From a virus, in the IMG/VR virus record IMGVR_UViG_3300021171_000010, positions 1 through 64,000 of that record: 64,000 nt of DNA. One strand, given 5' to 3'. Numbering within the stretch: position 1 is the stretch's first letter; each line of letters begins with the position of its first letter. The notes under the pieces were generated by a model. The model was given only the letters and a program-made list of their open reading frames with translations, had not been told where the DNA came from and did no database searches. The translations under genes and the position numbers were made by a program. Below, in pieces: positions 31,264 to 57,041 of the stretch.

Positions 31264-31273
31264 CTATTAGGAT

Positions 31274-31714: not shown

Positions 31715-31717
31715 AAT

Positions 31718-32725
31718 ATGGGTGACGTATTAGGCTTTGTTGGACAAATTGGCGCGGCCGAAATTCAATCTTCGGCTGCAGAACGCGCTACTCAGGCACA
31801 GCTAGATGCTCTGAATCAGCAGCGCAATTTTGTTTTTCAGAATCTTCAACCGAGCACGATTAATGCGCAAGCAACTCAGGCGGATGTCCAGCAAACGCTG
31901 AGCCAGCTTGAACTGCAGCGTCAAATAGACCCTGGACTTGCTGCCGCTAGGCAAGCGGCAGGTTCGCAGATAGCAGCAGGCACTGCGGGAATTGGAGCCA
32001 CGAGCAACCCCATTGCTGCTCAGGCGGCTGCAGAAGCTACTTCCGGCGTGAGTGGTGCGGCTGGCAGCACCTCTGCTCAGGGTAAACAGCAATTGATTGA
32101 CGCCGCATTGCAGCAACTTAAGCTTGGCGCTACTCTTCCTCCGGATGTTGAAGCTCAACTCGTGCAGTCGGGTCTGGAACAATCTGGAATGGTTACCCAA
32201 TCCGCTTCCGGCCAGGGCATCGGCGGCCAGCTTCAGCGGCAAATCCTTGGGACAGCGGGTATTCAGTTGCAGATGCAACGCCAACAGCAGGCGCAAAACC
32301 TTTTGATGGGGGCACAGAATCTGGAAACATCTCGCGCTAACATCTTGCAGTCGTTGTTTCCGAATCTGGCGCAGACTCAGCTAGCCAATCTTCAGGGCGC
32401 TGAAGGCGCTTTCAACACCTCGAATGCCGCGGCTCCGAACGTAGGCTTAAGCGGCACCAATGTGGCCAATTTGTGGCTCGCGCGCGTGGGCGCTACGAAT
32501 CAGCTTACGCAATCTGCTGCGAACGCCGCGGCTCAGGGCGCAATGGCTCAGGGCACCATTTGGGGACAGGCCGTAGGCGGAGCCGCGCGCGCTGCAGGCG
32601 GAGCGCTTCCCACTGCTAGCCAACTGTGGAGCAGCTTAAACACTAACACCGGAGCTGGCGGAGTGGCTCCCGGAGCAGACCAGCAAAGCCAAGCAGATGC
32701 ACAGGCTGCCGCATCGATAATTTGA
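31718..32725 (+). CDS. internal virion / DNA ejection protein
   Basis: Gln/Ala/Gly-rich, hydrophobic N-terminus, follows the GNAT. Confidence 0.65.
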   Translation: MGDVLGFVGQIGAAEIQSSAAERATQAQLDALNQQRNFVFQNLQPSTINAQATQADVQQTLSQLELQRQIDPGLAAARQAAGSQIAAGTAGIGATSNPIAAQAAAEATSGVSGAAGSTSAQGKQQLIDAALQQLKLGATLPPDVEAQLVQSGLEQSGMVTQSASGQGIGGQLQRQILGTAGIQLQMQRQQQAQNLLMGAQNLETSRANILQSLFPNLAQTQLANLQGAEGAFNTSNAAAPNVGLSGTNVANLWLARVGATNQLTQSAANAAAQGAMAQGTIWGQAVGGAARAAGGALPTASQLWSSLNTNTGAGGVAPGADQQSQADAQAAASII

Positions 32726-32728
32726 TGT

Positions 32729-33199
32729 ATGGGACTTTTCGGCTGGACAGCACAATCATTGGTTCCTCCTCACTCTGTGAGTGCCTTTGGCACTGGTGGT
32801 GTGGGAATGCAGAACGTGTCCCAGGTAGGCACCCCGGCGGCTCAGACTTTTACCACACCGACCACGCCACAGCTTAACATTCAGCCACAAATGCAGCAGA
32901 TTCTTGCGAAGATTTTAGGACCTAATTATCAGCAGGGCACGAATCCAAGTCCCATTGCTGGGTCTCAAGATTTGTATTCTCCGAACTATTTGGCTCAGGT
33001 GAATTCAGGCACTGCGCCCCAGGTTTCTCCAAACGGTTTCACTCGATTTGGGAATTCTTTTTGGCGAATGCCCGCGCAGCAGCCCGCGGAGTCTCAGCAG
33101 CTATCGGGCACCCCAGCACCCACTTTTGCGCCCGCAGCTACCAGCTACGGCGCGCCTTCTGCGTGGACTCCCAACCAAACGAACCTTTTCAATATCTAA
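32729..33199 (+). CDS. Gln/Pro-rich internal virion protein
   Basis: Low-complexity ORF within the ejection module. Confidence 0.55.
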   Translation: MGLFGWTAQSLVPPHSVSAFGTGGVGMQNVSQVGTPAAQTFTTPTTPQLNIQPQMQQILAKILGPNYQQGTNPSPIAGSQDLYSPNYLAQVNSGTAPQVSPNGFTRFGNSFWRMPAQQPAESQQLSGTPAPTFAPAATSYGAPSAWTPNQTNLFNI

Positions 33200-33202
33200 T
33201 TT

Positions 33203-34801
33203 ATGGCTATAGGACAAGAGCCCATTCAACCGATTCAAGCTGGCGCCACTGCGCAACCGCTAGTCACTTCGGCATCCGATGTCGTCACTCCGGATGCGGT
33301 GGCGCAGCTTACTGATGGTTTTCGCAAAGGCTTCATAACGGCTGATGATGTGGTCAATCGTATCGGGGACGTAGGCAAGGCACAGAAAAAGGCCCTCCTG
33401 GAATCTCTTGGTGAATATGTCAATCCGGATTTGATTAATTCACGGCTTGCTGCTGCCAAAGCTTCGACTGCGCAGAGTAATCTACAGCAGCAGCAAGCAA
33501 CGGCGGCGCAGGGCATCGTGCAGCCGGCCGCTAATCTCGCGCAGACACAGATTGCTTCTCAGCAGGCTGAAGCGGTTTACGGCAAAGGTGGACTGGAAAC
33601 TTATCAGACTCTTGGGCCGCTCTACGGTGAGTCTATGCCGCCTAATCCGGATGAGAACGATTTCAAGAAAGCTGCGCAGCGCGGGAATGAAATGAAAGGG
33701 CAGATGATGTTGGCGGACCGGTGGCTGCAACAAATCGCACCAGCGGCAGATTACACCTTCACCGATGCCCAAGGCAATACATATCCTCGCAAGAAAAATT
33801 GGCAGGGCATTGATGTGACTCCGCCAAACCCTTCGACCGGATATCCCGGGTCTCCTGCTTATTGGGCCTATGCGAAGCAGCTCGACCAGTTTTTGCCGAA
33901 GTTCCATCCAGCCCGGTCCCAGTATTTTCTTGACCAGTCTTCGGCACCTAGCCCGGATGATGTTCACGAGGTGGAACCTACTGTGCCGGCGGGAACGCAT
34001 CCCGCCTCGTCTGCGATTGAGCCTTTGACGGATGACCAAGTGCGAGCAGCCGCGGTGAATAAGTTGGGCCTTACCGGTGACCAAGCGGCGAACATGAACG
34101 CCCGAGATTTGACAACCGCCAGGACTCTCATAGAGCCTGCCCAAGCTCCTCCTGCAGTTGCTGCCGCTCCGGCCGCTGCTGCCGTAGCTCCCGCTTATTC
34201 CGGCCAGGGCGCCGCGCCAGGGGAAGTTCCCATAAAGCCCGGTCAGACGGTGCCTGAGGCACGCGAGCAGCTTCAGAAGCTTCCCGGTATCGAGCAATTT
34301 GCCAAGGCTCAGCCTCTGTATGCCAATTTTCTATCCGCGGCAGTGAACGCGCACAAAACTCCGGCCGGGGAGCCTACGGGAACCAGTGATTTGACTCTGG
34401 GAGAAACCTACGGCAAGCTGCTTGACCCGAGCGCCACACTTCGCGAGTTTAAGTGGGATGCTATCAAAAAAGCCATACCCTGGGCCGATGAGTTTTCGGA
34501 TGCTAAGAATTTGATTCTGCGCACCCACACTTTCCCACCCCAGTTCCGGCAGCGCTTGGTGGACGATGGATTCAACATCATCGAAAATAGCGAAAAGGCA
34601 ATTGCGCCGAAGTTGCAGTATGCTCAGAAGCAATATCCTGGGGTGCTCGATTCTGACGAGCAGGGTATCGCGAATGGAGTGCCTTTCCGGCAGCGCAAGG
34701 GTTATTACCAAGCAATCGCGAGCTCTCCTGCCGCGGCTGCCGGTGGCAATAAACGCACAGTAAATATTCCTGGTGTTGGCCCGGTAATCGTCAACTTTTA
34801 A
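33203..34801 (+). CDS. internal virion / DNA ejection protein
   Basis: Ala/Gln-rich; SDL.L...YGKLLDP.ATLRE motif of the type seen in podovirus ejection proteins. Confidence 0.65.
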   Translation: MAIGQEPIQPIQAGATAQPLVTSASDVVTPDAVAQLTDGFRKGFITADDVVNRIGDVGKAQKKALLESLGEYVNPDLINSRLAAAKASTAQSNLQQQQATAAQGIVQPAANLAQTQIASQQAEAVYGKGGLETYQTLGPLYGESMPPNPDENDFKKAAQRGNEMKGQMMLADRWLQQIAPAADYTFTDAQGNTYPRKKNWQGIDVTPPNPSTGYPGSPAYWAYAKQLDQFLPKFHPARSQYFLDQSSAPSPDDVHEVEPTVPAGTHPASSAIEPLTDDQVRAAAVNKLGLTGDQAANMNARDLTTARTLIEPAQAPPAVAAAPAAAAVAPAYSGQGAAPGEVPIKPGQTVPEAREQLQKLPGIEQFAKAQPLYANFLSAAVNAHKTPAGEPTGTSDLTLGETYGKLLDPSATLREFKWDAIKKAIPWADEFSDAKNLILRTHTFPPQFRQRLVDDGFNIIENSEKAIAPKLQYAQKQYPGVLDSDEQGIANGVPFRQRKGYYQAIASSPAAAAGGNKRTVNIPGVGPVIVNF

Positions 34802-34804
34802 GAT

Positions 34805-37800
34805 GTGCCTACGTTTACCGCACCTGACGGTTCGCCTGTTACTTTGACCCCAGAGCAGCAGACTCAAGCGCTTAGCCTTGCATCTGCTGCTACTCCCGAA
34901 GCTACTTTCACTCGGCCTGACGGCACTCCCGTCACATTGGCACCTGAGCAGCAATCTCAGGCGTTGCAACAGGCCCAATCTCCCGCGCCGATGCTTAGCC
35001 GGCCGGATGGCACGCCCCTGGACGTCACAAGTCTTCATGCTGAACAACTGGCCGAGTTGAATAAGCAAGAGCCGGGTTTCGACCTCCCGTCCGTGTGGAA
35101 TTCCCTGCCCGCGGAACAAAAAACACCTGACGCGCTAGCGAGATTTTCTGAAGCTTCGCACCTCGTGCATCAGCAGCCTTTTTCGTTGCCTACGGTGACC
35201 AAGATGCTTTCCAATCTCTGGCAGCTTGCCAAAGGGGGCGGCGAGATGATTTCCAACCTTGCCAAGGGTGGCGCTTTGATAGTTGGTGGATATCCCGGCG
35301 CAGGCACCTGGATGGACCCCCAGAAGGTTAAGGAAGTTCAGCAGGGAATCGCCGAAGGATGGTCTGGAACAGAGAGCGCGGTGACTGGACTCGCCAATCA
35401 ACTCAAGGAAACAGTGGTGCGGCACGTCATTCAGCCGCCTAACACACTGGACCCGGCGGTTAAGCAGCAGAATTTTCTTGATGAGGCTGCGATGGCAGAC
35501 CAGCAGTCTCAAATTCTAAAAGGTCGCGGCGAGTTCATGAATCGAGTTGGTGGCGATGAAATATCTTATTTGGAGTCACAGGGATTTCCGGTTCGCCCAG
35601 AGCATGCTGCTAATCTTGCTCAAGTGGACCCATTCACTTTTTATCTTTTTGGCAAAGCCTTTGACGCATTGCCGGCGGCTACTAAAGCGGCTATTCCCAC
35701 GCCGATTTTAGACGCAATTCAAAAAGCCAGCGATACCGCGACCGATACCGCCAAACAAATCGTGGGCGGAGGAGCTGCTGCGACTGCTGCAGTGCTGCAA
35801 GGTGTAGGCGCGGGCGTGACTAAAGCGGCTCCGCATATTGGGCGCCCCGCGGCTGCGATTGCCGGCGGAATTCATGCCGGCGTGCCGGGCGCGGTCACGG
35901 GACTGGTTTTCGGCAAAGGCATGACCGAATCCCTGTCTGAGATGGGGAAGAAAATTGCTTCGGCAGCTAAAGGCACCGCTAAATTCGGTGAAGGCGTGTC
36001 CAGCGAGGCGGCTACCGGACCGGTATCACAGGCTGCCAAGGACATTATTGAAGCTGCGCCCGGCGCATTAGCTGGTGTCGCTCAAGGCGCCGCTTTAGAT
36101 GTGGGACTTCAGGCGGCCACAGCAGAGACGCCGCAGCAACAGCAAAGCTTCACCCCGGTGGGGACCGCCATGGGATTGACTCATGGTGCTATGTCTGCTG
36201 GCAAGTGGATGCTCGGCGGCCAACTTGCAGGAGAGCGGAACTGGGGCGCTACCGCAGGTGTGCCAAATTCGGCAGCGTTTCCCGCGCTGAACACTCTCCA
36301 CAACGCCGCAATGTCTGCTGCGCCCCCTAAGATTCAGGAAAGAATCAGGGCGATTCAGCAGCTTAAGCAGGGAGTCAATCCTAACACTGATGTTTTCTAC
36401 ATCCCCGACCCGGTGGGTGTGATGGCTGCTCTGGGTGCAACTCCGGGTGCGGAACAGCATGCTTTTCAGGCCGGCGCCGCGAATGGAGTTTTCTTGAAGG
36501 ATTTGCCCGGAGCGAATGGGCAGAAGCGCAACGCAATCATCTTCCAGAACGTAGATGCGGCCCCACACGAAGCAGTGCACGCGATGGATGCAGCTCTCGG
36601 AGCGGAAAGAGTAAATGAGCTTAATCAGTCTGCTAAATCAGACTATGGAGACCTTTGGGACCAATTTACCAGTCATTACGCCAATTTGCTCAATGGAGGA
36701 CAGCCACTTCCTGAAGGCACTACGCCAGGAGATTTTCTGCTTCAGCAATCAGGATTTGGCCCTGAGGCAGCCCGGAATAAAACCGGCGGAGACGGGTCAG
36801 ATTGGCAGACTGCTCTGACACCAGACGAAAAGCAAAACGCGATTGACCGCTACATCGGCGCCGAGATTCGCGCGGAGAACGGGGACGCGTATTTCAAACG
36901 CACGGGCGGCAAAGCGCCGGGATTCACAGACAAAATGGCGAATGCTGCCGGCGAGCTCGTAAGCCTGCTAGGTGGAAATCCCTTAGAGGGACGCGTTAGC
37001 AGCGGACTTCAACTACCGTTGCGATGGGACACGTTTAAACAGGCTGGTCAAACTCTTGCCGAGGCCCGGGCTAATGTTCCTCCTGCTTTGCGGCCTGTAG
37101 CTAGAACGCCACTAACTACTAAGACGGTGCCGACCACGCCGGAGGAAATCCAGCAGAATGCGGATGACGCAAGAGTAATTGCTGGACAGCAGCCGGCAGA
37201 GAAACCGACTGGCGCCGAGGGCGAGCAGTCGCCCAAAGAAGCCCTGGGAACAGTTGCTGAAGCGATTGCAAGCCAGTCCCCAGTGCGATATCAATACCGC
37301 GGGGCCGCCGGCGAAACTCCTACAGGGGGAGCCTTGGAAACTGATGTTTCGCAGCGCCAAGCCGAAATAGCCAAAGCTCAAAACGTGTCTGAGACCGACC
37401 GAGATCTTTTCGAGCGCGTCGGATTCCCATACAAAGTAGAAATGACCGGCAAAGGTCCTCAAGTTCTAGACTGGGCGCCCGTAAATCTCGCCGCAAATGC
37501 TTTTCGTTGGTCCAAAGCTCTGTCAGAACTAGCCAAGAAAAATCCAAATGCTCCGGAGCTTGCACGCAATCCATTTGCATTAGATGTCGCGAAAGGCGAG
37601 TTCACAACTGAAGGCTGGCATGATTTGTTAGACACTGCACAGAAAGTATCTGCAAATCAACTTGCCGGATTTGGCGGGGCTGGACAGAAAATCGTTGTGC
37701 CGTCCGATTTAGGGGCTGCGAACGTCTATGCACCGCCTCGTGTTTCTGAAACTGCTCCTTTTCAAGTTGACCAAGCGAAAGCAGATTTTATTAACATGCT

Positions 37801-40800
37801 TTATGGGGAACGTCCGCCAGAGACACCGCGTGTGTCTCGCAAAAGCGGCGTCCCCGCCAATGTTGTGGCGCAGAAAATCTCTGCCGCTACTGAGCCCGGA
37901 AGGGTAGTTGAGCCAGCGAAGATTCGAGCAAAGCCCAAGCAGGCCGCCGGGCTTGGCGTGGAACCTGGGACGTTAATAGAGCGCGCGCCATTCAAAGAGC
38001 CAATTTTGGGTGTGCCTACCATCCAGGAAGTAAATCCCACCCGAGGTGCTTTAGAAAATGCCCTGCAGTCCGCCGGTGTTGAAATCCCCAAGATGACAAA
38101 AGTCATCCGCCGGTTGAACCTGGAACATATCCATTCAGTTCAACCGGAACCAAATCTGCCGCGGACCGCGGGCGCCAATGTTCTAACCACCACTGCCGGC
38201 TTTATGCCGGTGACGGATTTTGTTGACCGGCTTGATAAAACCTCGCCGGATGATTGGCGAAACATGGTGACCAATTATCAGGGCCGATTTGGGGGTGGAC
38301 AGACCGGTTTGTCAATAGAGGTTGGGGCTGGGGCAAAAAGTCCTGAGGAAGTGGCAGCTTTGCAATCTGCTACGGAGCGCCAAAGTGAACTAATGCGCGG
38401 GGCTTTAAAGAACAGAGATTTTCAAACTGCCGCGGGATATGCGATTAAGGCGCAGGCAGCTAGAGAGGCTCATGAGGCCGCTACTGGTGGCGGAGGGATG
38501 CCAGATTTTCTGCAAAGGTATCACCCCGAGGCTGGATATAAACCTCCGTTTCCTGAATCGACTTTACAAGCTGCGCCGCGGAATGAAGATGTGGCCAAAG
38601 TGGCAGAGGATTATGTGGGCCGACCGCTGCGTCCCATCGGCAATTTGCCAATCAGCCCCGACTTAGGCAAGCGCCTCGCGGACTTCGCACAGGAAGCGCA
38701 GCACAATCCGGATGACCCTGCTGTGAAGGCTAGTTATGGTGCGTTGAACGCGCAGATTAAACAGCAGTATGACGCAATCCGGAAAGCGGGCTACACTGTA
38801 GAGCCGTGGACCGGCGCAGGCGAGCCTTACAAGTCCAGTGCCGAGATGTCTGCAGACGTGCGCGACAACAAGCACCTTTTCTTCACGCCAACTGCGCGCA
38901 GTTTTAGTGGCCAAGAAAACAACTTGATGCTACAACCCTCTGGCGTGGGTGATTTAAGTCATAATGATTTATTCCGCGCGGTGCATGATTTCTTCGGCCA
39001 CGCCAAGGAGGGGTTGCAGTTTGGTCCCCGGGGTGAATATAATGCTTGGCGGGAACATTCCCAGATGTTCAGCCCGGAAGCTCAGGGCGCCTTAGCTGCC
39101 GAGACTTTGGCTCAAAACGCTTTCGTAAATTTCGGTAGTCATCTCCGCAACGCGGAAGGAAACATACCGGCAGTGGGAGAGCCCGGGTATGTTCCGCCTG
39201 CTCAGCGACCTTTCGCGGAACAAAAAAATTTCGTGGTGCCCTCCGAACTCAGGAAAGCCGCACAATTTCAACCACTTCCTCCCGGTGCTGGCAAAGCTCT
39301 TGATTGGCGTGACTTAGGGAACGATACTCTTGCTCCCGGCCTTCACATCGAAGCTATCGCTGGAAAGCCTCCTGCTGTTCCGATTTCTCAGCTCCAAAAA
39401 GAGGGCTGGAAAACGATGGACTTTCAAGATAATGGAAGCTTCCATGATTACGACAATCGCCCCGTTTTTTACAAAGATAATACGGGAAAATTTCCCGTAA
39501 CTCCTGATGGAGTAAAGGCGGCTTCTGAGGCCGCTAGTAAAGCTTTTGATGAAGCTCAAAATTTAGCGTTCGAAGACCGATATGGCGAAGGCCCCGTTCA
39601 ATATCAGCCTAGACCAATCGAAGAGGCGCGTAGCGAGCCGAAAACGATTCTAATTCGCCACGGAACGACTGCCCTGAATAACACTGACCCGACCAAAGAT
39701 TTAATCCGCGGGCACAAAAACGTTCAGCTTAGTGAAGAGGGCCGACAGCAAGCCGCGGAGCTGGGGCAGCAGCTTAAAACCTCTGGTATCTCCAGAATTT
39801 ATTCCTCTGATTTAGACCGCACCATGGACACTGCCAAGGAAGTGGCCAAAACCACCGGTGCGCCTATAACGCCCGATGCTAGACTAAGGCCCTGGAAACT
39901 TGGAAGCACAATCGAAGGAAAACCGACAGCGGATATGCTGCCTAGAATCAAATCTCTTACTGAGAGTCCAGATGAACGACCGCCCGGCGGAGAGACCTTC
40001 AATGAATTCAAGGACCGTTTTCTTGAAGGCTATCACGCAATCCAGGACGCGCATCCGAATGAGCACACCGCTATAGTGACTCACTATCGCGGCACGAAGT
40101 TGATGGATGCTTGGCGTGCCGCCGGCGTGGATAATGACGAGGTGAAACCAGATGTTTTCGATGCATATGACCCGCACAAAAAACCGGGCAGTTATCAGGT
40201 GCTCGACAAGCAAGGTAATGAGCTACCTCTAGATACCGCTCGCCCGGAGGGAGCTCCAATCACTCACCTCTCTGATGCTGAGTTGAACTCGGCGCCGGGC
40301 ATGACGCGCGAGCAGACTCTGGCAGCCGAGCGAGGGGGAACCCAGCCAGCACAGTTCAAGCCTCGTGAGAAACAGGAAAAAGAAATCGAGCTGCGCCACT
40401 GGTCAAACATTCCGGGACTCAAAGTGCTTGACCCTCGTTTTCATGGCACCGGCTTGAGTGGTGAGGAACGCGCCCGAGCCCGTGACTACAAAGAAATTTA
40501 CGTGCCTCGCACCTATTTTGGAACGAAGGATTACACCAAAGAGCCGAACCTGGGGCCAGAGCAATACCGCGCTTTTGTGCAGCGCAGCAAGCTCTACCCG
40601 TTTCAGGAAGACCCCAAAGATTTGTGGCCCACGCCGGAGGAAGTGGAAAAGGCCGGATACGCGCCGATGGACTCTCGCGCGGCGAATACGCTTTACGAAA
40701 ATAAGATTGCGCAGGCTGGTTATGAGGGCTATATTCACCGTGATGCAAAAGTCGCTGCGAAGTTCACCAAGACTCCGGTAGAATATTTAGGCTCTATGGC

Positions 40801-42715
40801 CCAATTCTCACCATCTACCAAACCTCGTGCTATCCGAGCAGCCGCAGTGCAAGACAAAGACACTGGCCAAATTTTCGAAGGTTTTGCACATTTTGATGCT
40901 CACGGAAAAATGCTGGATGCTGGTTATAATCCTCACGACTTGTTTCAGCACCCGCAGGGTTTTGTGACAAATGAAGGTGAATTTTTGGACCGAGAACAGG
41001 CTTTAAAAAGGGCGAGAGAATTGGACCAAATACGTCCTTCCTACGCCGAAAATAAAACGCGAACGCGTGCTATTGCTGAGGCTATAGATATGGCCGCCAA
41101 ACCCCCATCCTCAGCAGAGCCGGCCGGGCCGGCGCAATTCAAACCCGCGGGCGCTCCCAAACTGGAAGATTTCCAATCTGAAGACAAAATAGCTAAAGCG
41201 CTCGCGCGCCCGGGATGGGCATTACTCACCGCGACCGAAGAGCGAAAAGGTCCCGGCACTGCTCCGGTAAATGTGAAAGCAAACGAACGCTTATCAGACA
41301 GACTCGCTCAGCTCGGTTATGATTTCACTCCTGTAGCTGGCAGCTATAAAGGCATCGACCAAGGCCAGAATTTTCTCGTGACTGGCATTTCTCCACAGGA
41401 TGCTCTCACGCTGGGGAAGGAATTCAATCAAGAATCCGTTCTTACTCCCGCCGGACTGGTGTATCAAGACGGAAGTGTGCACCCCGCCAAGCCGGAAGAG
41501 ACTACCATAGGCAAAGCGGCCAAGAAAAACGATTTCTATTCCCAAGTCCAGGGCGGCCCGGCATTTTCGATGGGTATCGATTTCGAGAACAAGATTCCCG
41601 CTTCTGAAGCTCCAGTCCCCGCGGCTCGGCCAGAGCAGCAGATGATGGGCGGAGAGTTTTCGCCCACCAAAGAGCTGGCCGGCAATCAAATGTCGCCCAC
41701 GGAGCTGAAGGAACATTACCCGGAAGCGATTGTAGTGCCTGATAAGGAAAACGGCAAGCCTGTAGGCATCCCTTCGGATATCAAAGAATCTCCACTCTAC
41801 AAAGAGCATGAGACTGAAGCTGAGGCAGTGGACACTTTCGCTAAACGACTCGCAGACTTTGCTCGCCAATACAAAGACAACCCAGCTTACAAAGATGGGC
41901 TGCGTTGGTATTCTGAATTCGTCCCGCTTTTGAAAAAGCATTTTGGCGAGCATGCCCAAATAATGGCTGAGCTCCTGGCGGCCACAAGCCCGCAGAACAA
42001 TCCACAGCAAAATTTTGCGATGGCGAATGATGCGCTGGAAATGTGGAAGCGCGGCAAGTTCGATAAACAGCTCGCTAAATTCGAAGAAGGTGCAAAAAAG
42101 ATTGAAGATGGGACTTGGAAAGATTCCGGGGCGCCGACCGAAGCAAAATTCATGGCTGACTGGATTGATGAGCACGATTTAAAACCGCGGCAGAGCAATG
42201 GAAAGCTTTATAACATGCACTCTGTGCCAGTGCTTCAGGTGCTCGCCCGCAAGTGGCTAGAAAACACCGGCGGCCCGAAGACTCAAAACTTCGTCAAGAA
42301 TCTCTTGGGCACCGGGCATGGCGCCACTTATGATGTGTGGGCTGACCGTACCCTTCGCAGAATCGGATATTCAGGGCATCAAGCGCGATGGCGAATCCTG
42401 CCAAAGAACGCGGTGGGGGTCTCAGATGCTGATTTTGCTTTCGGCCAGAAAGTTTTCGCCAAGGCAGCCAAGGAGCTCGGCGTGAGGCCGGATTCTCTGC
42501 AGGGCGGTCTGTGGTTCGCAGAAAAACAATTGTGGGCGGACAACGGGTGGGGTAGACTTGACTTAGGCGATTTTCGGAAAGAAATCCAGAATCGCGAGTT
42601 GCTGAACCGCGGCATTGTGCAGCGCTTGGCAGCTACGGAAGCGGCGCAGCAAGCTCCTCAGACTGCGCAGAGCGGATTTGATTTGGGAATGATTGAACCG
42701 AGACCGATTCGATGA
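34805..42715 (+). CDS. giant modular ejection / polyvalent protein (HExxH peptidase, histidine phosphatase, ART-like, DUF3293-like and HhH-like domains)
   Basis: 2636 aa. APHEAVH at about 36560; VHDFFGH..GE domain; LIRHG...SSDL.R...PPGGE...VTH phosphatase; RHWS..L..LDP.F.GTG ART-like segment; WALLTA...FNQESVL; C-terminal WY...AATSPQ...GPKT..F..NL...DVW...LQGGLW domain. Confidence 0.8.
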   Translation: MPTFTAPDGSPVTLTPEQQTQALSLASAATPEATFTRPDGTPVTLAPEQQSQALQQAQSPAPMLSRPDGTPLDVTSLHAEQLAELNKQEPGFDLPSVWNSLPAEQKTPDALARFSEASHLVHQQPFSLPTVTKMLSNLWQLAKGGGEMISNLAKGGALIVGGYPGAGTWMDPQKVKEVQQGIAEGWSGTESAVTGLANQLKETVVRHVIQPPNTLDPAVKQQNFLDEAAMADQQSQILKGRGEFMNRVGGDEISYLESQGFPVRPEHAANLAQVDPFTFYLFGKAFDALPAATKAAIPTPILDAIQKASDTATDTAKQIVGGGAAATAAVLQGVGAGVTKAAPHIGRPAAAIAGGIHAGVPGAVTGLVFGKGMTESLSEMGKKIASAAKGTAKFGEGVSSEAATGPVSQAAKDIIEAAPGALAGVAQGAALDVGLQAATAETPQQQQSFTPVGTAMGLTHGAMSAGKWMLGGQLAGERNWGATAGVPNSAAFPALNTLHNAAMSAAPPKIQERIRAIQQLKQGVNPNTDVFYIPDPVGVMAALGATPGAEQHAFQAGAANGVFLKDLPGANGQKRNAIIFQNVDAAPHEAVHAMDAALGAERVNELNQSAKSDYGDLWDQFTSHYANLLNGGQPLPEGTTPGDFLLQQSGFGPEAARNKTGGDGSDWQTALTPDEKQNAIDRYIGAEIRAENGDAYFKRTGGKAPGFTDKMANAAGELVSLLGGNPLEGRVSSGLQLPLRWDTFKQAGQTLAEARANVPPALRPVARTPLTTKTVPTTPEEIQQNADDARVIAGQQPAEKPTGAEGEQSPKEALGTVAEAIASQSPVRYQYRGAAGETPTGGALETDVSQRQAEIAKAQNVSETDRDLFERVGFPYKVEMTGKGPQVLDWAPVNLAANAFRWSKALSELAKKNPNAPELARNPFALDVAKGEFTTEGWHDLLDTAQKVSANQLAGFGGAGQKIVVPSDLGAANVYAPPRVSETAPFQVDQAKADFINMLYGERPPETPRVSRKSGVPANVVAQKISAATEPGRVVEPAKIRAKPKQAAGLGVEPGTLIERAPFKEPILGVPTIQEVNPTRGALENALQSAGVEIPKMTKVIRRLNLEHIHSVQPEPNLPRTAGANVLTTTAGFMPVTDFVDRLDKTSPDDWRNMVTNYQGRFGGGQTGLSIEVGAGAKSPEEVAALQSATERQSELMRGALKNRDFQTAAGYAIKAQAAREAHEAATGGGGMPDFLQRYHPEAGYKPPFPESTLQAAPRNEDVAKVAEDYVGRPLRPIGNLPISPDLGKRLADFAQEAQHNPDDPAVKASYGALNAQIKQQYDAIRKAGYTVEPWTGAGEPYKSSAEMSADVRDNKHLFFTPTARSFSGQENNLMLQPSGVGDLSHNDLFRAVHDFFGHAKEGLQFGPRGEYNAWREHSQMFSPEAQGALAAETLAQNAFVNFGSHLRNAEGNIPAVGEPGYVPPAQRPFAEQKNFVVPSELRKAAQFQPLPPGAGKALDWRDLGNDTLAPGLHIEAIAGKPPAVPISQLQKEGWKTMDFQDNGSFHDYDNRPVFYKDNTGKFPVTPDGVKAASEAASKAFDEAQNLAFEDRYGEGPVQYQPRPIEEARSEPKTILIRHGTTALNNTDPTKDLIRGHKNVQLSEEGRQQAAELGQQLKTSGISRIYSSDLDRTMDTAKEVAKTTGAPITPDARLRPWKLGSTIEGKPTADMLPRIKSLTESPDERPPGGETFNEFKDRFLEGYHAIQDAHPNEHTAIVTHYRGTKLMDAWRAAGVDNDEVKPDVFDAYDPHKKPGSYQVLDKQGNELPLDTARPEGAPITHLSDAELNSAPGMTREQTLAAERGGTQPAQFKPREKQEKEIELRHWSNIPGLKVLDPRFHGTGLSGEERARARDYKEIYVPRTYFGTKDYTKEPNLGPEQYRAFVQRSKLYPFQEDPKDLWPTPEEVEKAGYAPMDSRAANTLYENKIAQAGYEGYIHRDAKVAAKFTKTPVEYLGSMAQFSPSTKPRAIRAAAVQDKDTGQIFEGFAHFDAHGKMLDAGYNPHDLFQHPQGFVTNEGEFLDREQALKRARELDQIRPSYAENKTRTRAIAEAIDMAAKPPSSAEPAGPAQFKPAGAPKLEDFQSEDKIAKALARPGWALLTATEERKGPGTAPVNVKANERLSDRLAQLGYDFTPVAGSYKGIDQGQNFLVTGISPQDALTLGKEFNQESVLTPAGLVYQDGSVHPAKPEETTIGKAAKKNDFYSQVQGGPAFSMGIDFENKIPASEAPVPAARPEQQMMGGEFSPTKELAGNQMSPTELKEHYPEAIVVPDKENGKPVGIPSDIKESPLYKEHETEAEAVDTFAKRLADFARQYKDNPAYKDGLRWYSEFVPLLKKHFGEHAQIMAELLAATSPQNNPQQNFAMANDALEMWKRGKFDKQLAKFEEGAKKIEDGTWKDSGAPTEAKFMADWIDEHDLKPRQSNGKLYNMHSVPVLQVLARKWLENTGGPKTQNFVKNLLGTGHGATYDVWADRTLRRIGYSGHQARWRILPKNAVGVSDADFAFGQKVFAKAAKELGVRPDSLQGGLWFAEKQLWADNGWGRLDLGDFRKEIQNRELLNRGIVQRLAATEAAQQAPQTAQSGFDLGMIEPRPIR

Positions 42716-42888: not shown

Positions 42889-43581
42889 ATGGCAACTGAT
42901 ACTAGCATGATTCAACCAGCGGATGACGCTGCTCCGCCTTCTCCTCAGGTCCAGCCCGCCAATGCACCAGCACCCCCTGCCGGGCCAAAGCTTTCCGAAA
43001 AGCTGCTCAAGATGCCGGCGATGCAAGCGCTTTTCGCTGGTGCACCTCCGGCCCTGAGCGCACCCACCAAGGACTTTACTCAATCCAAGCGGGACGAGGC
43101 TAAGATAATCAAGGACAATCTCCCAGCGCTGCAGCAGGTCGGCATGGGCTTTTACAAGTCCCTGAGCGGTCATCTGGGGGTTATATACAACATGCTGCAT
43201 GTGCACCTGCAGGATTTGCAGGCTGCAGATAAAGCCGGCAAGTTGACCGTCTTGGCGCCAGATTTTGATTCCATCACCCACGCAGTGTCCAAAAGTGGGG
43301 CACGTAACCCTGTCCTGGCGGTCCGGGGTGTTCCTAAAGGCTTCAAAACTCCTACTCCCCAGGCCCCGCCTCTGGCCGCCCCGGTGCCCCCAGGCGCTTC
43401 TGGACCCGCTCCCGCCCCTATGTCACCTCCTCCGGCTCCGCAAGTGCGCCCCGCCCCCGCCGGCGTTCAGCGCAAGCTAGCTAATGCGAGAGTGGCGAAC
43501 CTTCAACCGGGCGCCCCGACTTCTGGGGCTTCTCCGGGTGCCGGCCGATTGCTGAACGCAATCATGAAGCCAGTCATCTAA
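42889..43581 (+). CDS. Pro-rich hypothetical late protein
   Basis: ACTATTA motif 4 nt upstream of the ATG; last + strand gene. Confidence 0.7.
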   Translation: MATDTSMIQPADDAAPPSPQVQPANAPAPPAGPKLSEKLLKMPAMQALFAGAPPALSAPTKDFTQSKRDEAKIIKDNLPALQQVGMGFYKSLSGHLGVIYNMLHVHLQDLQAADKAGKLTVLAPDFDSITHAVSKSGARNPVLAVRGVPKGFKTPTPQAPPLAAPVPPGASGPAPAPMSPPPAPQVRPAPAGVQRKLANARVANLQPGAPTSGASPGAGRLLNAIMKPVI

Positions 43582-43917
43582 ATTCTCACTGCTGAGAAAT
43601 GTGCCTTCGGCGGTCATGCCCAACTTTTGGGCGATGGCAGAAAACTCCGGTCCATGTCCTGGCACCGGGCAAGCCGCATGACAGAGCTCGTGCAATAAAA
43701 ATTGAAGCATCTGGCGCCGGCCGGGGAATTTCTTACTAATGACGACCACGTTCACCGCACGGTGAAACTCCCCAAAATAGTGAACATGCTGGCAGTCTCC
43801 CAGGAACACGCGCAGCCGAGTAGGTAGCGGGTGCCCGATTCGAATGAACTCGCCGCGCATTAGCTTTACTGCGCGGCGTAGCCATTTTTCCTTGAGCGCT
43901 CGTCTAGTGAGAGGCAT
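43477..43917 (-). CDS. SprT-like zinc metalloprotease
   Basis: LLHELCHAA...GHGPEF...LGM. Confidence 0.7.
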   Translation of the reverse strand: MPLTRRALKEKWLRRAVKLMRGEFIRIGHPLPTRLRVFLGDCQHVHYFGEFHRAVNVVVISKKFPGRRQMLQFLLHELCHAACPVPGHGPEFSAIAQKLGMTAEGTFLSSENLDDWLHDCVQQSAGTRRSPRSRGARLKVRHSRIS

Positions 43918-44386
43918 CTGGAAAATTTAAAGCCGCGAAATCACCAAAAAGTTTTTGTGCCGCGGCATCGTAAGCCTTGGCGGCCTCTACTTCATCATCG
44001 AAGTATCCTAAGTGTTTCTGGCAAGCATCAAGGACAATATATGCTCGCCAGCACTGGTCCCTTCGATACCAGCTCACGCCTTTGAAGCGACTGGTTCGTT
44101 TGCCTTGACGCGGTAAAATTTGATAACGCACGTTTTGAGCATTAGTGCAGACTCGTAAATTATCAAACCAGTTGTGCAGGCCATTGCCATCCCAGTGATT
44201 CACTTTTGCGGAATCCGGCGCGTTTACTAGCCATCTATGTAAGTAAACGAGCGAACCAGCGATGCGCGCTCTGGCATAAATAGTTTTCTCTCTTCGGTCC
44301 GCATGCCACTTATGAAGATTAACACTAGCAAACACCGAATCATCCACCAAGGCAACTAATCCCTGAGAAAGGGGAACGACTTTCAC
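43904..44386 (-). CDS. HNH-AP2 homing endonuclease (copy 2)
   Basis: ALVDD, YLHR, VNHWDGNGLHN..DNLR, SRFKGVSW...EAAKAYD.AA..LFGDFAALNFP. Confidence 0.9.
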   Translation of the reverse strand: MKVVPLSQGLVALVDDSVFASVNLHKWHADRREKTIYARARIAGSLVYLHRWLVNAPDSAKVNHWDGNGLHNWFDNLRVCTNAQNVRYQILPRQGKRTSRFKGVSWYRRDQCWRAYIVLDACQKHLGYFDDEVEAAKAYDAAAQKLFGDFAALNFPDASH

Positions 44387-45654: not shown

Positions 45655-46246
45655 TTTTAGTTTCAACACCGTTTTTTTCCAACCATTCGTGAGTAAAGGG
45701 AGTCTGCCGGCCGGCAAAGGCTTCGTCAAAAGCGAACAGACATTGCTCAACTGTAGGGCCGATGCCCACCAAGCAGGTAGGCGAATTCAAATCCCCTTTG
45801 AAAGCGGCCCAGTCGCCTGTTTTCAACCGCACCAGGGTAGGATTCAACCGAGTATGGGGCGAGGAAATTTCTAGAGAGGCTTTTTTCTGCGCTTCCAGAC
45901 TTTCCAGGTTCAGCTTGATGGCTGCCTTGTAGTCGGCCTCGACCTGCTTTTGAAATTCGCTGTCCCACCGCGCGCTGTCATCCAAAATCGCATCCAGGCG
46001 TTCACACACCTTGATAAAAGTGTTCTCTGCAGCGACAAGGGCTTCCCCAGGCAACGCCTTTTCGGCGGAGGGCACGGAAGACTCATTGTATTCCATGTTC
46101 TGTGCCTTCACGTTACAGGCGGTAATCATCATGCCGATGATTTGCAAACAGGTGTTCACCTGCTGCTGAGTCGCCAACTCCCGCATCGAAAGCTGAATTT
46201 GTGGAGGATTCACGATTTGATTCTGCCTAAATGATTGATTGCCCAT
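45500..46246 (-). CDS. hypothetical protein
   Basis: 248-aa ORF; its C-terminal tail overlaps the next gene. Confidence 0.65.
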   Translation of the reverse strand: MGNQSFRQNQIVNPPQIQLSMRELATQQQVNTCLQIIGMMITACNVKAQNMEYNESSVPSAEKALPGEALVAAENTFIKVCERLDAILDDSARWDSEFQKQVEADYKAAIKLNLESLEAQKKASLEISSPHTRLNPTLVRLKTGDWAAFKGDLNSPTCLVGIGPTVEQCLFAFDEAFAGRQTPFTHEWLEKNGVETKNEQAPLDKNRNANPDATPLPGKDRKRNRRSPRPPSLPSDGEDSSSSPTGGA

Positions 46247-46718
46247 ACTTTAAAAAGTTTGTCCTCGCAAATTCTCCAAAAAATTTCCGAGCCGCAGCAT
46301 CATATGCCTTAGCAGCCTTTTCTGCCGTGTCGAATCTTCCAAGGTATTTGAGCCGATTGTTTACTCGAATACTAGCTTGCCACATCCCATTATGCCAGCT
46401 AACGCCCTTGAAACCGGAGGTATTGTTTCGGCTCATACCCTTGTTTTGCTGATTTTGGTGCCGAGTAACACGAAGATTATAGCGCTGATAATTTAGAGAA
46501 TTTCCATCAGCATGGTCTCCTTGTGTTTTAGGATTATCAAGTCCCAAAATTAAACGATGCATCAGGATAAGCTTACGCATGCCTTTGCATCTAATACTGC
46601 GCGCGGCATAATATCCGCTATTCACTTCCATTGCATACCAATTCCATTGGCTGAGCCATTCAAAATCAGCATCATCAACTAAAGCAAATTGACCCTTTGT
46701 CAAGGGAATCTGTTTCAT
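46227..46718 (-). CDS. HNH-AP2 homing endonuclease (copy 3)
   Basis: MKQIPLTKGQFALVDDADFEWL, MHRLILG, GDHADGN, NTSGFKGVSW, AAKAYD.AA...FGEFARTNF. Confidence 0.9.
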   Translation of the reverse strand: MKQIPLTKGQFALVDDADFEWLSQWNWYAMEVNSGYYAARSIRCKGMRKLILMHRLILGLDNPKTQGDHADGNSLNYQRYNLRVTRHQNQQNKGMSRNNTSGFKGVSWHNGMWQASIRVNNRLKYLGRFDTAEKAAKAYDAAARKFFGEFARTNFLKYGQSII

Positions 46719-47227: not shown

Positions 47228-47884
47228 CTAGAAGTCGGAATAAAGAACGTGTCTCGCGAGTAATTTATTTCTGATTTTCTTGAGTGCGCTGCCGTGAATA
47301 TGCCGCACCGCCTCACAGGTCACACCCAGCTTTTTGCCAATGTCCGTAAGGGTGAAGCCGCTCTTGTAGTGCAGGTCAATCACCATCGCCTCGCGCTGCG
47401 ATAAAAGCTTAAGTAGCGGAGCGACCAAGGCCCACTGTTCCCGGAGTTTGACGGTTTTAAAATCTGGGTCTGCTATCTCACCAGTTAGGACTTCCACATC
47501 CAGAGTCTGCGTATCGGGGTCATTACTCATGCACAGCGTGTCTCTCAACTCCTCGCGCGAAACTGTGAAGCCTTTTTTAATCACTTTCTGAGTATTGAAA
47601 TATTCCTTCACCGCGCCACGGAGGTGTGCCTTGCTGAAAGCAAAGAACCGCGCCCAATTCGGCTTGAACCGCCGGGCAGCATTCAGCATGGCGCCATAGC
47701 ACAAACTCAAAAGTTCGGCGTCTGAAATCGCGGCCCCGCAAACCCGCTTGGAATACTTGACCGCCTCGCGCATATTGTGCAGCACTAGCTTGTTATGCGC
47801 AGTTGCGGTGCCCCGCTTCGCCAGGGCATTTTCTTGTGCAGTGGTCAGCTTCTCTTCAGGAAATCCGTCACAGATGTCGGTCAT
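47228..47884 (-). CDS. phage-encoded sigma-70 family factor (regions 2 and 4)
   Basis: NKLVLHNMR..V...KR...ELLS...AM.NAARRF.P...RF..F (region 2); LSQRE..VI.LHY...TLTDIG..LGVT.EAVR.I...ALKKIR (region 4). Start at ATG 47884 (ATGA overlap). Confidence 0.85.
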   Translation of the reverse strand: MTDICDGFPEEKLTTAQENALAKRGTATAHNKLVLHNMREAVKYSKRVCGAAISDAELLSLCYGAMLNAARRFKPNWARFFAFSKAHLRGAVKEYFNTQKVIKKGFTVSREELRDTLCMSNDPDTQTLDVEVLTGEIADPDFKTVKLREQWALVAPLLKLLSQREAMVIDLHYKSGFTLTDIGKKLGVTCEAVRHIHGSALKKIRNKLLARHVLYSDF

Positions 47885-50097
47885 ACGGGCAATGGAGTGG
47901 ATGATTGCGGTGGCGTAGTTGAATCCACCGGGACAGTCATTTCCCGGGGACGTTGAATAATCCAAGTTCGAGTTTTCAGGGCGCCTTCTTCCGAACGGCA
48001 TTTAATAATTCCCTCTTTTGACAGGCGTTCCATATAGCGATTGATTGAGCTGCCGTCAAGCCGGCGGTCCAGCAGCGCGTGCGCCGGGTCGGACATAATC
48101 AGCGCGGTTAAATCCCGCACGTTGCCGCGCCATTCAGTGTCTTTGTCGTGCGTCTCAAAATATCGCTTCAGCGATTCGAGCAAGATTTCCTTGAAAGGAT
48201 TTGCCGGATTGCCCTGCAGCACTTGGCTCAGCAAAGACGGCTCTTGAAAGCTAGCGAGCTCATATCTAGCATGCCGGGCAAGCTCATCAGAGATTTCCAT
48301 TTCAGAAAGCCACTTAAGAAAATGGGGCAATTCCTTCAGCAGAATTTTCTCCTGCTCACTTCGTGCCGGGAATTGGAAATCAGTGTGCTCCTCTACGCAG
48401 CGGAAAATATTGGTCTTGTCCAGCACAGTGTTGTCCAGGGTGCCTAAAATGCGCAGCGACACAGGGTCAAGGTTGCCCGTGATTCCAATCATGCCGCGCC
48501 ACTCAGTCATTCCGGAGACTACAAATTTTTCATTGTTGAGATGCTGGTCATTCGCCACCATTTTTTTCAGGGCAGCTTGGAAGCGTAGCGCCGAGGCTGA
48601 ATTCGCCGAAGGGTTATCGTCATCGAGTGCCCAATAGGGGTAGTGGTAAAGATGGGAATTGAAGGAGCTTCCTTCAACGAGATAATCCGATGCGTCAACA
48701 TATCCACCCAAGCTTCTTCCGAAAACCTCGCGGCTAACAAAAGTTTTTCCCACACCGGGACCTCCGAGAAAATACGAATAGCAGGAGGGCTGAGGCGCCC
48801 AATTAAGCGCTCGCATGTATCCAAAGTGGAACCACGCGAGGGCGTGGTTGAGCTGTGACCTGGGGTTAAATAACGCATCGAGCAGGGCAGAGATAAACGG
48901 AAAATTTCCATGAGGTCCCCAAACTTCTTTTACCGCTCCTGCGGCAGGTTGCACTGGTTTTTTGTTGTAGATGTTTAGAATTCGCTGACCATTCAAAATC
49001 ATGACGCCCGGCCGGCGCATTACAACCGGCACCGCGGCGCGCACACGGTTGTAAGTGTAAATGTGATTCTTGGCGAGCTCGATTTGGCTAACACCGTTAT
49101 CATCAGACTTTGTGGAGAGCTTGTGATTCACTTTCCAAAGCGTGACTTGCTCGTGCGGGTCTCGCCCTTCATACTCCTCTGAAATCACCGACTTGGACCA
49201 AAAACATTTTTTGTCCCAGTAGATGTCTTCTGTGGCTGATGCTATTGCGTCTTTGAAATAAGTTTTTGCGAATTCCTCGCCCAGGATGTCCGACCACTTG
49301 TTGAAAACCTTGGCAGCGTGCGCGGCGAAGGAAATCATTCCGCCCTCTTTCAGGATGGCAGACATCGGCGAAGTGCTCTCAGGAATCCAGAAGCTTGGCC
49401 CCTGGGAGCCTACTGTGAAATCCGTTGGCCACGAGAAGCCCGGGAATTTCGCTTTGATTTCCTTTTCGACAACATCCAAGGGAATTGCTTCCTCACCTTT
49501 TCCCAGGCCCTTAAAAGCATGTTTTTTTCCAACTCCAACGAAAAACGCCTGACAGTCTCTTCGGGGAAGTGCCTGAGCTCCGTCCACCTTTTCCCATTTG
49601 CATCCGTTGCAGTATAGACGGGTCGGTGTGATGAAAGCTTGTTCATCAAGGCCAGGGGCATGATGAAGCTGCAGCCACTTAATGGCCGCTTGGTAGATTG
49701 CGGAGCAGAAGCCATAGTCTTGAACGAGAAAAGGAATTTCGATGGGCCAGATGAACCGGCGATGAAAGCCCAGGGAGGTTTCGACCCACTGAGGTCTGAA
49801 AGGCATTTCCTTGATGATTTCCTGAATGCGCTGGTCAGGGATTTCCACGTCCAGGTCTGCCACGAAGGCATGAATCTTGTGCGGAGGATTAGACTCTTTA
49901 CTTACGCGCTGATTGGGATTCAATGCTTCCAGCCCGGAATAAAACTGATGCTGCGTTGCCGTGTTGCTATACCAAAGTTGGCGCTCTTCCTTATCCTTTC
50001 GGATTTGCAGCGTGATTACTTCTGTGGGAACGAAGTCCCAGGGTGCCGGGCACTCCTGCATGGAAAGGGTAACGAGATTCTTTGTAGCAAAAAACAT
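47881..50097 (-). CDS. primase-polymerase fused to SF3-like helicase
   Basis: AEP-like FVADLD and ETS.G.H motifs; Walker A GGPGVGKT, FNS.L, ALDD, LKKMVAN...EKF. Confidence 0.8.
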   Translation of the reverse strand: MFFATKNLVTLSMQECPAPWDFVPTEVITLQIRKDKEERQLWYSNTATQHQFYSGLEALNPNQRVSKESNPPHKIHAFVADLDVEIPDQRIQEIIKEMPFRPQWVETSLGFHRRFIWPIEIPFLVQDYGFCSAIYQAAIKWLQLHHAPGLDEQAFITPTRLYCNGCKWEKVDGAQALPRRDCQAFFVGVGKKHAFKGLGKGEEAIPLDVVEKEIKAKFPGFSWPTDFTVGSQGPSFWIPESTSPMSAILKEGGMISFAAHAAKVFNKWSDILGEEFAKTYFKDAIASATEDIYWDKKCFWSKSVISEEYEGRDPHEQVTLWKVNHKLSTKSDDNGVSQIELAKNHIYTYNRVRAAVPVVMRRPGVMILNGQRILNIYNKKPVQPAAGAVKEVWGPHGNFPFISALLDALFNPRSQLNHALAWFHFGYMRALNWAPQPSCYSYFLGGPGVGKTFVSREVFGRSLGGYVDASDYLVEGSSFNSHLYHYPYWALDDDNPSANSASALRFQAALKKMVANDQHLNNEKFVVSGMTEWRGMIGITGNLDPVSLRILGTLDNTVLDKTNIFRCVEEHTDFQFPARSEQEKILLKELPHFLKWLSEMEISDELARHARYELASFQEPSLLSQVLQGNPANPFKEILLESLKRYFETHDKDTEWRGNVRDLTALIMSDPAHALLDRRLDGSSINRYMERLSKEGIIKCRSEEGALKTRTWIIQRPREMTVPVDSTTPPQSSTPLPV

Positions 50098-56846: not shown

Positions 56847-57041
56847 TTAGTATTTGGACATCACGCGAGACTTGATGTCCTGAGCGGGTTTTCCAGTAGG
56901 ACGCCAATTACTGTGCTCGACTGCGTTTAGCAATCGTTTCTGGCGAGCCGCCTTTGCAGGCGTTGTGGATTTTGCTTTGATACCTCCCGGAGTCCGCACC
57001 TGGACCCGGCCTTTTCCAACAGATTTTATACGCACTGGCAT
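56847..57041 (-). CDS. small basic protein
   Basis: MPVRIK...VRTPGG.KAK.TT..KA..Q.RLLNAVEH..WRPT. Confidence 0.65.
   Translation of the reverse strand: MPVRIKSVGKGRVQVRTPGGIKAKSTTPAKAARQKRLLNAVEHSNWRPTGKPAQDIKSRVMSKY

Follow-up and report, generated by a model that had tools for sequence, protein, structure and literature searches.

A giant polyvalent-protein gene was analysed in a virus genome (IMG/VR record IMGVR_UViG_3300021171_000010), and a short linear motif built around F-x-P was found at the joints between the domains of its product. The gene (34805..42715, + strand, GTG start) encodes 2,636 amino acids (aa) and lies in a stretch of 64,000 nucleotides, called the window below, which corresponds to bases 1-64000 of the 73,551-bp record (rated complete by CheckV). 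The protein is built in three parts: a core conserved at the N-terminus (aa 1-1130), a string of seven cassettes (aa 1133-2284) and, at the C-terminus, a DUF7178 domain which is again conserved. The motif is almost certainly a real, selected and joint-specific linear signal. Our favoured reading, to which we give a probability of about 0.5, is that the joints are cleavage sites of a metallopeptidase carried by the same protein.

Joint motif in the giant protein

An earlier note on this DNA had listed seven copies of the motif, and all of them were found where it had placed them on the + strand. The first copy, A-G-F-M-P (38195..38209, aa 1131-1135), ends the core. Its predicted local distance difference test score (pLDDT) is 53, and 59 BLAST alignment ends fall in aa 1130-1139. 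Among 100 aligned cores, A1131 is conserved in 97%, G1132 and F1133 in 100% and P1135 in 99%. The following copies are A-Q-F-Q-P (39260..39274, aa 1486-1490; 70 alignment ends in aa 1480-1499, pLDDT <50), V-Q-Y-Q-P (39596..39610, aa 1598-1602; pLDDT <50) and A-Q-F-K-P (40349..40363, aa 1849-1853; 15 alignment starts in aa 1840-1859), which closes a disordered linker of 35 aa. At A-Q-F-S-P (40799..40813, aa 1999-2003; 69 alignment starts in aa 1990-2009) the pLDDT dips to 69 between domains above 85, and a second A-Q-F-K-P (41132..41146, aa 2110-2114; 14 starts and 11 ends in aa 2110-2119) again has a pLDDT <50. The last copy, G-E-F-S-P (41651..41665, aa 2283-2287; 65 alignment starts in aa 2260-2299, pLDDT <50), is a weaker joint before the C-terminal domain. 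The [AED]FxP form of the joint was seen only in the close relatives P0003, P0004 and P0007.

Two further sites had been missed by the earlier note. GYKPP (aa 1244-1248, + strand) is a variant joint which ends cassette 1 and separates it from the VHDFFGH cassette, with alignment breakpoints at aa 1240-1269. LQFGP (aa 1404-1408) is the sixth copy of Q[FY]xP in the protein, and it is a conserved part of the VHDFFGH fold and not a joint.

To locate the motifs relative to the folds, we used an AlphaFold model of aa 1437-2636 (model 2, mean pLDDT 75.7). In this model the pLDDT is below 50 at aa 1454-1609, 1815-1856, 2078-2115 and 2272-2295, and dips to 69 at aa 1997-2006. It turned out that all six motifs covered by the model (6/6) fall within these low-pLDDT stretches or the dip, 5-12 residues ahead of the next domain, which bears out the proposal that they stand at domain boundaries. 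The domains that follow the motifs are of unrelated folds, and therefore the motif is not part of any of those folds.

The six copies of Q[FY]xP in the giant protein compare with a mean of 0.76 in composition-preserving shuffles, none of which reached six (0 of 5,000); the homolog sets described below are a stronger test than these shuffles, because the motif was defined after being seen. In the other 54 open reading frames (ORFs) of the window, Q[FY]xP occurs 7 times in 16,624 aa and is not enriched. A capsid-protease-type site common to other virion proteins, which was considered as a candidate, was ruled out by this lack of enrichment.

At the DNA level, the codons of the motif copies vary synonymously (CAA/CAG, TTT/TTC/TAT and CCA/CCT/CCC/CCG). 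Synonymous variation between copies is also found in 12 of 13 related viral loci (L003-L014), while the thirteenth, L015, encodes a distant protein of 5,207 aa without the motif. The codon differences noticed earlier thus stand, together with the conclusion that selection acts on the protein and not on the DNA. A nucleotide repeat or recombination signal at the joints was rejected as a candidate, since the codons differ between copies.

Enrichment and breakpoints across the family

We searched for homologs with aa 1100-2636 and obtained 335 proteins, the best 120 of which were used for the family comparisons. A separate exhaustive search with the core (phmmer, aa 470-1135, 1.84 billion representatives) found 161 proteins, and among the 150 matches listed the core match is either placed as in the core of the giant protein or belongs to a shorter piece.

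Q[FY]xP is strongly enriched in the cassette zones of 108 homologs, with 371 copies in 111,676 residues where 22.8 were expected, while the N-terminal cores of the same 108 homologs contain 33 copies vs 20.6 expected. An independent set of 54 further full-length relatives gave 112 copies vs 8.75 expected. By comparison, four giant phage proteins that share cassettes with the family but have no such core (from Flavobacterium elemoC, Octadecabacter BD1 gp16, Planktothrix Pag-Yong1 and L015) contain 0, 0, 2 and 1 copies, with 0.3-0.8 expected.

The motif also marks the positions where homology begins and ends. BLAST of the giant protein (P0001) against 119 homologs gave 433 alignments, the ends of which are heaped at the motifs and therefore mark off the conserved core (aa 1-1130) from a cassette zone that varies, and this zone from the C-terminal domain, which is conserved as well. 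Of the 23,680 alignment starts in the all-vs-all BLAST of the 120 proteins, 28.6% are no more than 10 residues away from a motif, as are 23.6% of the 21,200 ends; for random points the figure is 7.1%. The preferred position is 0-5 residues ahead of the Phe for starts (3,800 vs 392) and 0-5 residues behind it for ends (2,024 vs 427), so the motif is common to both neighbouring cassettes. Splitting the proteins at the motif yielded 657 segments with a median length of 160 aa, which fall into 114 clusters (78 of them singletons) and make up 109 distinct architectures among 119 proteins. Cassette swaps at the motif, which the earlier note had suggested looking for in homologs, are thus seen in the heaped breakpoints and shuffled architectures. 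Its idea of a recombination joint holds as far as cassettes are exchanged at the motif, but it is weakened as the primary function because the nucleotides of the joints are not conserved, whereas the copies of one protein vary in concert.

Short members of the family (1,100-1,500 aa) were considered as natural splits at a joint. Of 16 such proteins examined, several end at arbitrary places, for example at the start of the VHDFFGH cassette, and they were taken as contig-end fragments.

Lineage flavours of the motif

Joint-like [FY]xP sites were also picked solely by their position at alignment breakpoints, and 591 such sites were obtained from 119 proteins. Counted from the aromatic residue, position -2 favours A (248 sites), while Q is preferred both at -1 (275) and at +1 (253); K follows the Pro at 152 sites (151 of 584 in a second count). 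In most cases the Pro is followed by K, A or S, and by another Pro at only 63 of 584 sites.

Generally, a single version of the motif tends to recur at all joints of one protein. For example, P0020 contains four copies of QFQPK, P0056 has the flavour QFAP, P0059 and P0078 have KFQP, P0101 and P0117 have xFEP, P0114-P0116 have [KR]FLP and P0119 has AFLP. In P0008, P0010 and P0194 the joint is one residue longer (F-Q-A-P) and is present in 4, 3 and 7 copies, respectively. The agreement between pairs of joints within a protein is 0.424 at +1, vs 0.199 after shuffling (maximum 0.253 in 500 shuffles), and 0.471 vs 0.359 at -1. The core-end joint A-G-F-x-P follows the same rule. In 66 of 86 proteins its +1 residue is also that of the majority of the remaining joints (29.8 on average after shuffling, at most 41), and among the 41 proteins in which this majority residue is not Q the two agree in 22 (2.6 on average after shuffling, at most 9); all these margins are overstated, because the shuffles ignore the relatedness of the sequences.

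Two other observations are independent of the shuffles. Trees of the N-terminal core (FastTree and IQ-TREE quick, 100 rows) imply 11 or more changes of the +1 flavour and 4-5 origins of the K/R form at -1. Besides, the sisters P0060 and P0062 differ at homologous joints, with AGFEP vs AGFQP and QFEPK vs QFSPR. When one flavour runs through unrelated cassettes of a protein although their DNA is not identical, a single reader in each lineage is indicated. Judged from these sequence comparisons, the joint motif appears to be what this one reader recognises, and the reader would differ from one phage lineage to the next.

A candidate metallopeptidase in the conserved core

The earlier note had also pointed to an HExxH motif in the N-terminal half, and this motif was recovered as HEAVH (36566..36580, aa 588-592, + strand), a near-invariant candidate zinc site formed by H588, E589 and H592. 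In an AlphaFold model of aa 1-1160 (model 1, mean pLDDT 77.2) it lies in a helix (residues 583-598) of a predicted zincin-like metallopeptidase domain (36248..37099, aa 482-765, + strand; pLDDT about 85-95). An invariant glutamate, E687 (36863-36865, + strand), located 95 residues from HExxH, is the candidate third zinc ligand. In the 100 aligned cores, H588, H592 and E687 are conserved in 100% and E589 in 97%. Among 154 full-length members, 142 carry HExxH and five HDxxH, and in seven neither was found in the scanned stretch.

We compared aa 482-765 with known structures by VIA-align. The M34-type matches have Z-scores of 7.1-7.7 over 150-172 aligned residues, a level (Z <8) that by the VIA-align scale may reflect a common arrangement. 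They include the Certhrax N-domain (Z 7.7), the Pro-Pro endopeptidases PPEP-3 (Z 7.4, 156 aligned) and PPEP-2 (Z 7.2) and the catalytic domain of anthrax lethal factor (Z 7.1), and the ArdC metallopeptidase follows at Z 4.5. The zincin-like fold is called probable and no more, since these scores are within the common range and no sequence model names the domain. Foldseek with the whole 1,160-residue model 1 gave no PDB match at E<=0.001, and against viral models it retrieved only fragments of giant proteins of uncultured phages. The language-model neighbours of aa 480-760 are unnamed clusters.

The end of the N-terminal core is occupied by a predicted WYL/Sm-like beta-barrel region with helical inserts (37172..38179, aa 790-1125, + strand). 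By VIA-align the barrel matches PafBC (Z 9.2), BrxR (8.4), CapW (8.2) and DriD (8.1), with a range of 8.0-9.2 over 81-94 residues. The Pfam WYL model reaches it at E 0.13, with 12.7 bits vs a cut-off of 21.8.

Within the N-terminal core there is another joint-like sequence, G-[FY]-A-P-P (37721-37735, aa 973-977), which is conserved, with P977 present in 98-100% of sequences. From its sequence, this element could be an internal site or a pseudo-substrate.

Proposed cleavage by the built-in peptidase and rival explanations

In the favoured reading, the giant protein would be a virion-delivered polyvalent protein, consisting of the core, a variable string of effector cassettes and the DUF7178 domain. 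Each joint would present [A]-[Q/K/G]-[F/Y]-x-P in a disordered linker a few residues ahead of the next fold, and the protein's own putative metallopeptidase would act as the reader, splitting the chain into its individual effectors, either while still in the capsid or once injected. The cut might fall after the Pro, by analogy with the Pro-Pro endopeptidases (P3-P1 = hydrophobic-x-Pro); a cut before the Phe, with Phe at P1', is equally open. Cleavage itself, the acting protease, the timing and the scissile bond are all things that we infer. Taken over any protease, cleavage at the joints is predicted with somewhat better than even chances. The processing of polyvalent proteins by metallopeptidases was predicted before by Iyer et al. 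2017 (PMC5512222).

We also considered a more elaborate form of the peptidase reading, which must be called doubtful. The joints would then be a lineage-specific cleavage code that co-evolves with an M34-like zinc peptidase, and the WYL/Sm-like barrel would serve as a sensor. The barrel would keep the peptidase silent in the capsid and render it active after injection, e.g. on nucleic acid or a host metabolite, and the single injected chain would be cut at every F-x-P joint to give a phage-specific set of anti-defence enzymes.

Several observations weigh against cleavage by the built-in peptidase. The match to the zincin fold is middling (Z about 7, a range termed common by VIA-align), aa 500-779 match no Pfam or NCBIfam family at E<=1, and a profile of the peptidase domain found no peptidase among PDB sequences at E<=10. 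In model 1 the core-end motif, at pLDDT 53, has no confident placement and nothing puts it in the active site. The five HDxxH members retain 2-10 joint motifs each. Besides the overstated flavour margins, the columns of the N-terminal core that track the flavour are only scattered and clade-bound, with too few independent switches to convince. The location of the giant protein in the virion, which we infer, has its basis only in the gene position beside tail-fibre and other virion-block genes, with the synteny kept, and in ‘structural protein’ labels on distant cassette-sharing proteins. Finally, the virion RNA polymerase of phage N4 has a metallopeptidase domain and is packaged unprocessed, according to Iyer et al. 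(PMC5512222). A complex prediction that paired the peptidase (aa 470-770) and the core-end segment (aa 1122-1160) scored 0.02 (mark 0.32), which says nothing on binding in either direction.

The strongest rival, a serious one although rather unlikely in our view, is that the motif serves as a docking or recognition tag which is never cut. It would be bound by a lineage-specific partner, such as a packaging or scaffold protein, a chaperone, the portal or tail channel during ejection, or a domain of the same protein, and the chain would stay whole. The joint location, the disorder, the selection at the protein level and the concerted flavours fit a binding partner as well as a protease, and both the HDxxH variants with their retained motifs and the unprocessed N4 polymerase, a giant virion protein with a metallopeptidase domain (PMC5512222), speak for such a tag. 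However, no candidate partner was identified, and release would call for a tag at each boundary between cassettes, whereas one tag per protein would be enough to package a single chain. Docking would also leave the near-invariant zincin-like site in the same protein without a substrate. The present data do not decide between cleavage and docking.

Cutting of the motifs by another protease, either a phage capsid-maturation protease or a host protease, appears quite improbable. Such an enzyme could be hidden, since most virion genes have no recognisable family, and the motifs retained in the HDxxH variants fit it too. Against it, no head-protease family was found in the window, and the copies of Q[FY]xP in the other 54 ORFs, besides not being enriched, mark no obvious N-terminal propeptide. 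A host protease would leave it unexplained why sister phages have different flavours.

The least probable explanation is a passive linker element or recombination joint, kept by cassette exchange or by a favourable linker shape with no reader, which agrees with the coincidence of homology breakpoints and motif and with the highly shuffled architectures, but the DNA shows no conservation beyond what the residues require and so leaves little microhomology. Moreover, a spacer would not be expected to keep Phe and Pro almost invariant beside a residue that is typical of the lineage and the same across unrelated cassettes, and other polyvalent proteins shuffle the same cassettes without the motif.

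Comparison with known systems

MARTX toxins carry their own cysteine protease, which frees the effector domains by cutting the chain between them. The giant protein resembles them as one delivered chain with swappable effector cassettes, a built-in (here putative) protease and short sites in the inter-domain linkers. It differs in that MARTX are bacterial secreted toxins with a cysteine and not a zinc protease, for which activation by a host small molecule is established. Positive-strand RNA virus polyproteins offer another parallel, as their protease sites share a virus-specific consensus. Here, too, the joint sites are repeated in one chain, uniform within a virus and different between related viruses, whereas the present system belongs to a DNA phage, its modules are effectors and not replication proteins, and the protease class is unrelated. 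The analogy with RNA-virus polyproteins is also drawn by Iyer et al. (PMC5512222).

For the M34 zincins (PPEP-1/2/3 and lethal factor), the likeness to aa 482-765 consists of the middling structural match (Z 7.1-7.4), HExxH with a downstream invariant Glu, and the resemblance of F-x-P to hydrophobic-x-Pro. PPEPs are described as reading six residues (P3-P3'), with P3-P1 such as VNP, PLP and PSP, and as cutting after the Pro (PMC12828418). The differences are that no match exists at the sequence level, that the spacing between HExxH and the Glu is 95 residues here, and that a further Pro follows the motif Pro at few sites, as given above (63/584). The N4 virion RNA polymerase (PMC5512222), from a phage of about 70 kb, is also a giant protein and has a metallopeptidase domain, and it is packaged in the virion and injected, as would be the case here; it is, however, an RNA polymerase, and in the giant protein no polymerase domain or homology was found.

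The closest known class is that of the polyvalent proteins (Iyer et al. 2017, PMC5512222), giant multi-domain chains of phages and conjugative elements which join disparate effector enzymes and, commonly but not obligatorily, an embedded zincin-like HExxH peptidase domain. For a class with 2-15 unrelated domains, the giant protein shows a fitting size, with 2,636 aa in a 73,551-bp record and at least five confidently folded unrelated domains after the core. Effector enzymes of the type found in conflict systems are represented by His_Phos_1 and DUF3293, which pass the Pfam cut-offs, the latter with an S-adenosylmethionine (SAM) lyase-like fold (Z 10.7), while ART-PolyVal is a lead only. Unlike the proteins described there, as far as the main text of that paper goes, the present family has a defined joint motif with lineage flavours, which is tied to one N-terminal core without a Pfam MPTase-PolyVal match. 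In that main text the word ‘linker’ does not occur and ‘cleavage site’ appears only in a reference title; therefore no joint motif is apparently defined there. ‘DUF3293’ likewise has no occurrence and ‘WYL’ appears only in another context, and neither the core, the DUF7178 end nor the WYL-like barrel is described in it. A full-text literature search on the domain names of the family returned only papers on another topic. What is new is this core family, its defined joint motif and the co-varying flavours including the core-end site; the idea of processing is that of Iyer et al.

The family provides candidate sites defined to the residue, along with a conserved candidate enzyme on that very chain, and its flavour variants serve as natural specificity controls. 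The predicted processing of polyvalent proteins becomes testable with recombinant protein, and a phage culture is unneeded. If the joints are indeed cleaved, the motif would automatically delimit effector cassettes in several hundred uncultured phage proteins (335 matches), many of them cassettes without an assigned function that are probably aimed at host defences.

Cassettes and other domains of the giant protein

All features below are on the + strand. Cassette 1 (38210..38536, aa 1136-1244; 112 aa when counted from aa 1133) has no assigned function and belongs to segment cluster 3 with 42 members. Cassette 2 (38537..39259, aa 1245-1485; cluster 2, 67 members; phrog_3170) is the VHDFFGH domain, likewise without an assigned function, which is also present in proteins of other phages. 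Cassette 3 (39275..39595, aa 1491-1597; cluster 18, 3 members) is small and has no confident fold (pLDDT <50). Cassette 4 (39632..40246, aa 1610-1814) is a histidine phosphatase, matched by Pfam His_Phos_1 at E 2.7e-33 and by PhoE (1h2e) at Z 22.1. Cassette 5 (40373..40792, aa 1857-1996; cluster 6, 18 members) is probably ART-PolyVal-like. Its language-model neighbours are PF18760 ART-PolyVal clusters (score 0.93, 188 shared features), which is a lead only, and it has no Pfam match at E<=1. Searching the sequences of the ART-like and VHDFFGH cassettes against PDB gave chance-level rows only.

Cassette 6 (PRAIRAAAV...QGFVTNEGEFLDR; 40823..41035, aa 2007-2077) is a small domain of cluster 1 and the commonest cassette of the family, with 85 segments in 68 proteins. 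Its neighbours differ, with 25 kinds upstream and 31 kinds downstream. Cassette 7 (41150..41617, aa 2116-2271) is a DUF3293 domain (Pfam E 9.5e-07; S-AdoMet_lyase E 0.012), whose fold matches the SAM-degrading enzyme of phage T3 (7ock_L, Z 10.7, 122 of 152 residues aligned). The C-terminal helical domain (41690..42658, aa 2296-2618) is matched by DUF7178 (PF23802, E 7.3e-07) over aa 2361-2572, with 29.7 bits vs the Pfam gathering threshold of 27, and is found in 113 of 119 proteins. It is also similar to HhH-GPD glycosylases (Z 7.3-9.6), which on a helical fold is only suggestive. Of the domain labels proposed earlier, histidine phosphatase and DUF3293 are thus secured by the Pfam cut-offs, while ART-like stays a lead and HhH-like a suggestion. 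The domains of homologs include PF18760, radical SAM and GNAT; the label PF26092, listed for many homologs, was not reproduced by the Pfam search.

Two further elements lie before the peptidase domain in the core. Three tandem repeats of about 30 aa each (34811..35029, aa 3-75) are visible in the translation at the N-terminus, and model 1 shows them as short units of strand and helix. Two hydrophobic segments rich in Gly and Ala (35759..35905, aa 319-337 and 349-367; Kyte-Doolittle window >1.2, pLDDT <50) would make a possible membrane-active hairpin of an ejection protein; the only profile match, to ATP synthase subunit c, is insignificant (E 1.3).

Genomic neighbourhood

The giant gene lies inside a virion block on the + strand, of which it is the second-to-last gene, downstream of collagen-like tail-fibre genes (21370-24462). 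The replication genes are on the opposite strand. It is directly followed by a conserved ORF of 230 aa (42889-43581). The gene order 30436-31263, 31274-31714, 31718-32725, 33203-34801, giant gene, 42889-43581 is kept wholly or partly in all related loci compared (8 of 8), and the ORFs upstream (30436-34801) and downstream (42889-43581) thereby retain synteny with the giant gene. The giant gene had no megablast match, the putative terminase had no tblastn match among 50,697 phage records, and for the DNA polymerase the identity to cultured phages does not exceed 27%. By these comparisons, no cultured phage is closely related.

Several other genes of the window are worth listing. Within the virion block, a GDP-mannose 4,6-dehydratase and a NAD-dependent epimerase (12499-14366, +; Pfam E 9e-133 and 8e-60) may act on sugars of the host or of the phage. 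A serine recombinase/integrase-like ORF close to the beginning of the record (249-977, +; Resolvase E 1e-24, phrog_95) hints at a temperate or invertible-segment lifestyle. A sigma-factor-like ORF is located at 47228-48001 (-; phrog_351, E 2.5e-17). Six ORFs match phrog_99 HNH endonucleases at E 1e-27 to 1e-38 (3530-4003, 43904-44386, 46227-46718, 50100-50582, 57026-57604 and 60432-60917), an unusually high load of homing-type endonucleases for a 73-kb phage. One of them (50100-50582) lies between ORF 50579-52555 (-), which matches the phrog_17 DNA polymerase, and ORF 47881-50097 (738 aa, without a family match). The DNA polymerase is seemingly split here, and from this arrangement the HNH ORF looks like a homing-endonuclease insertion in polA.

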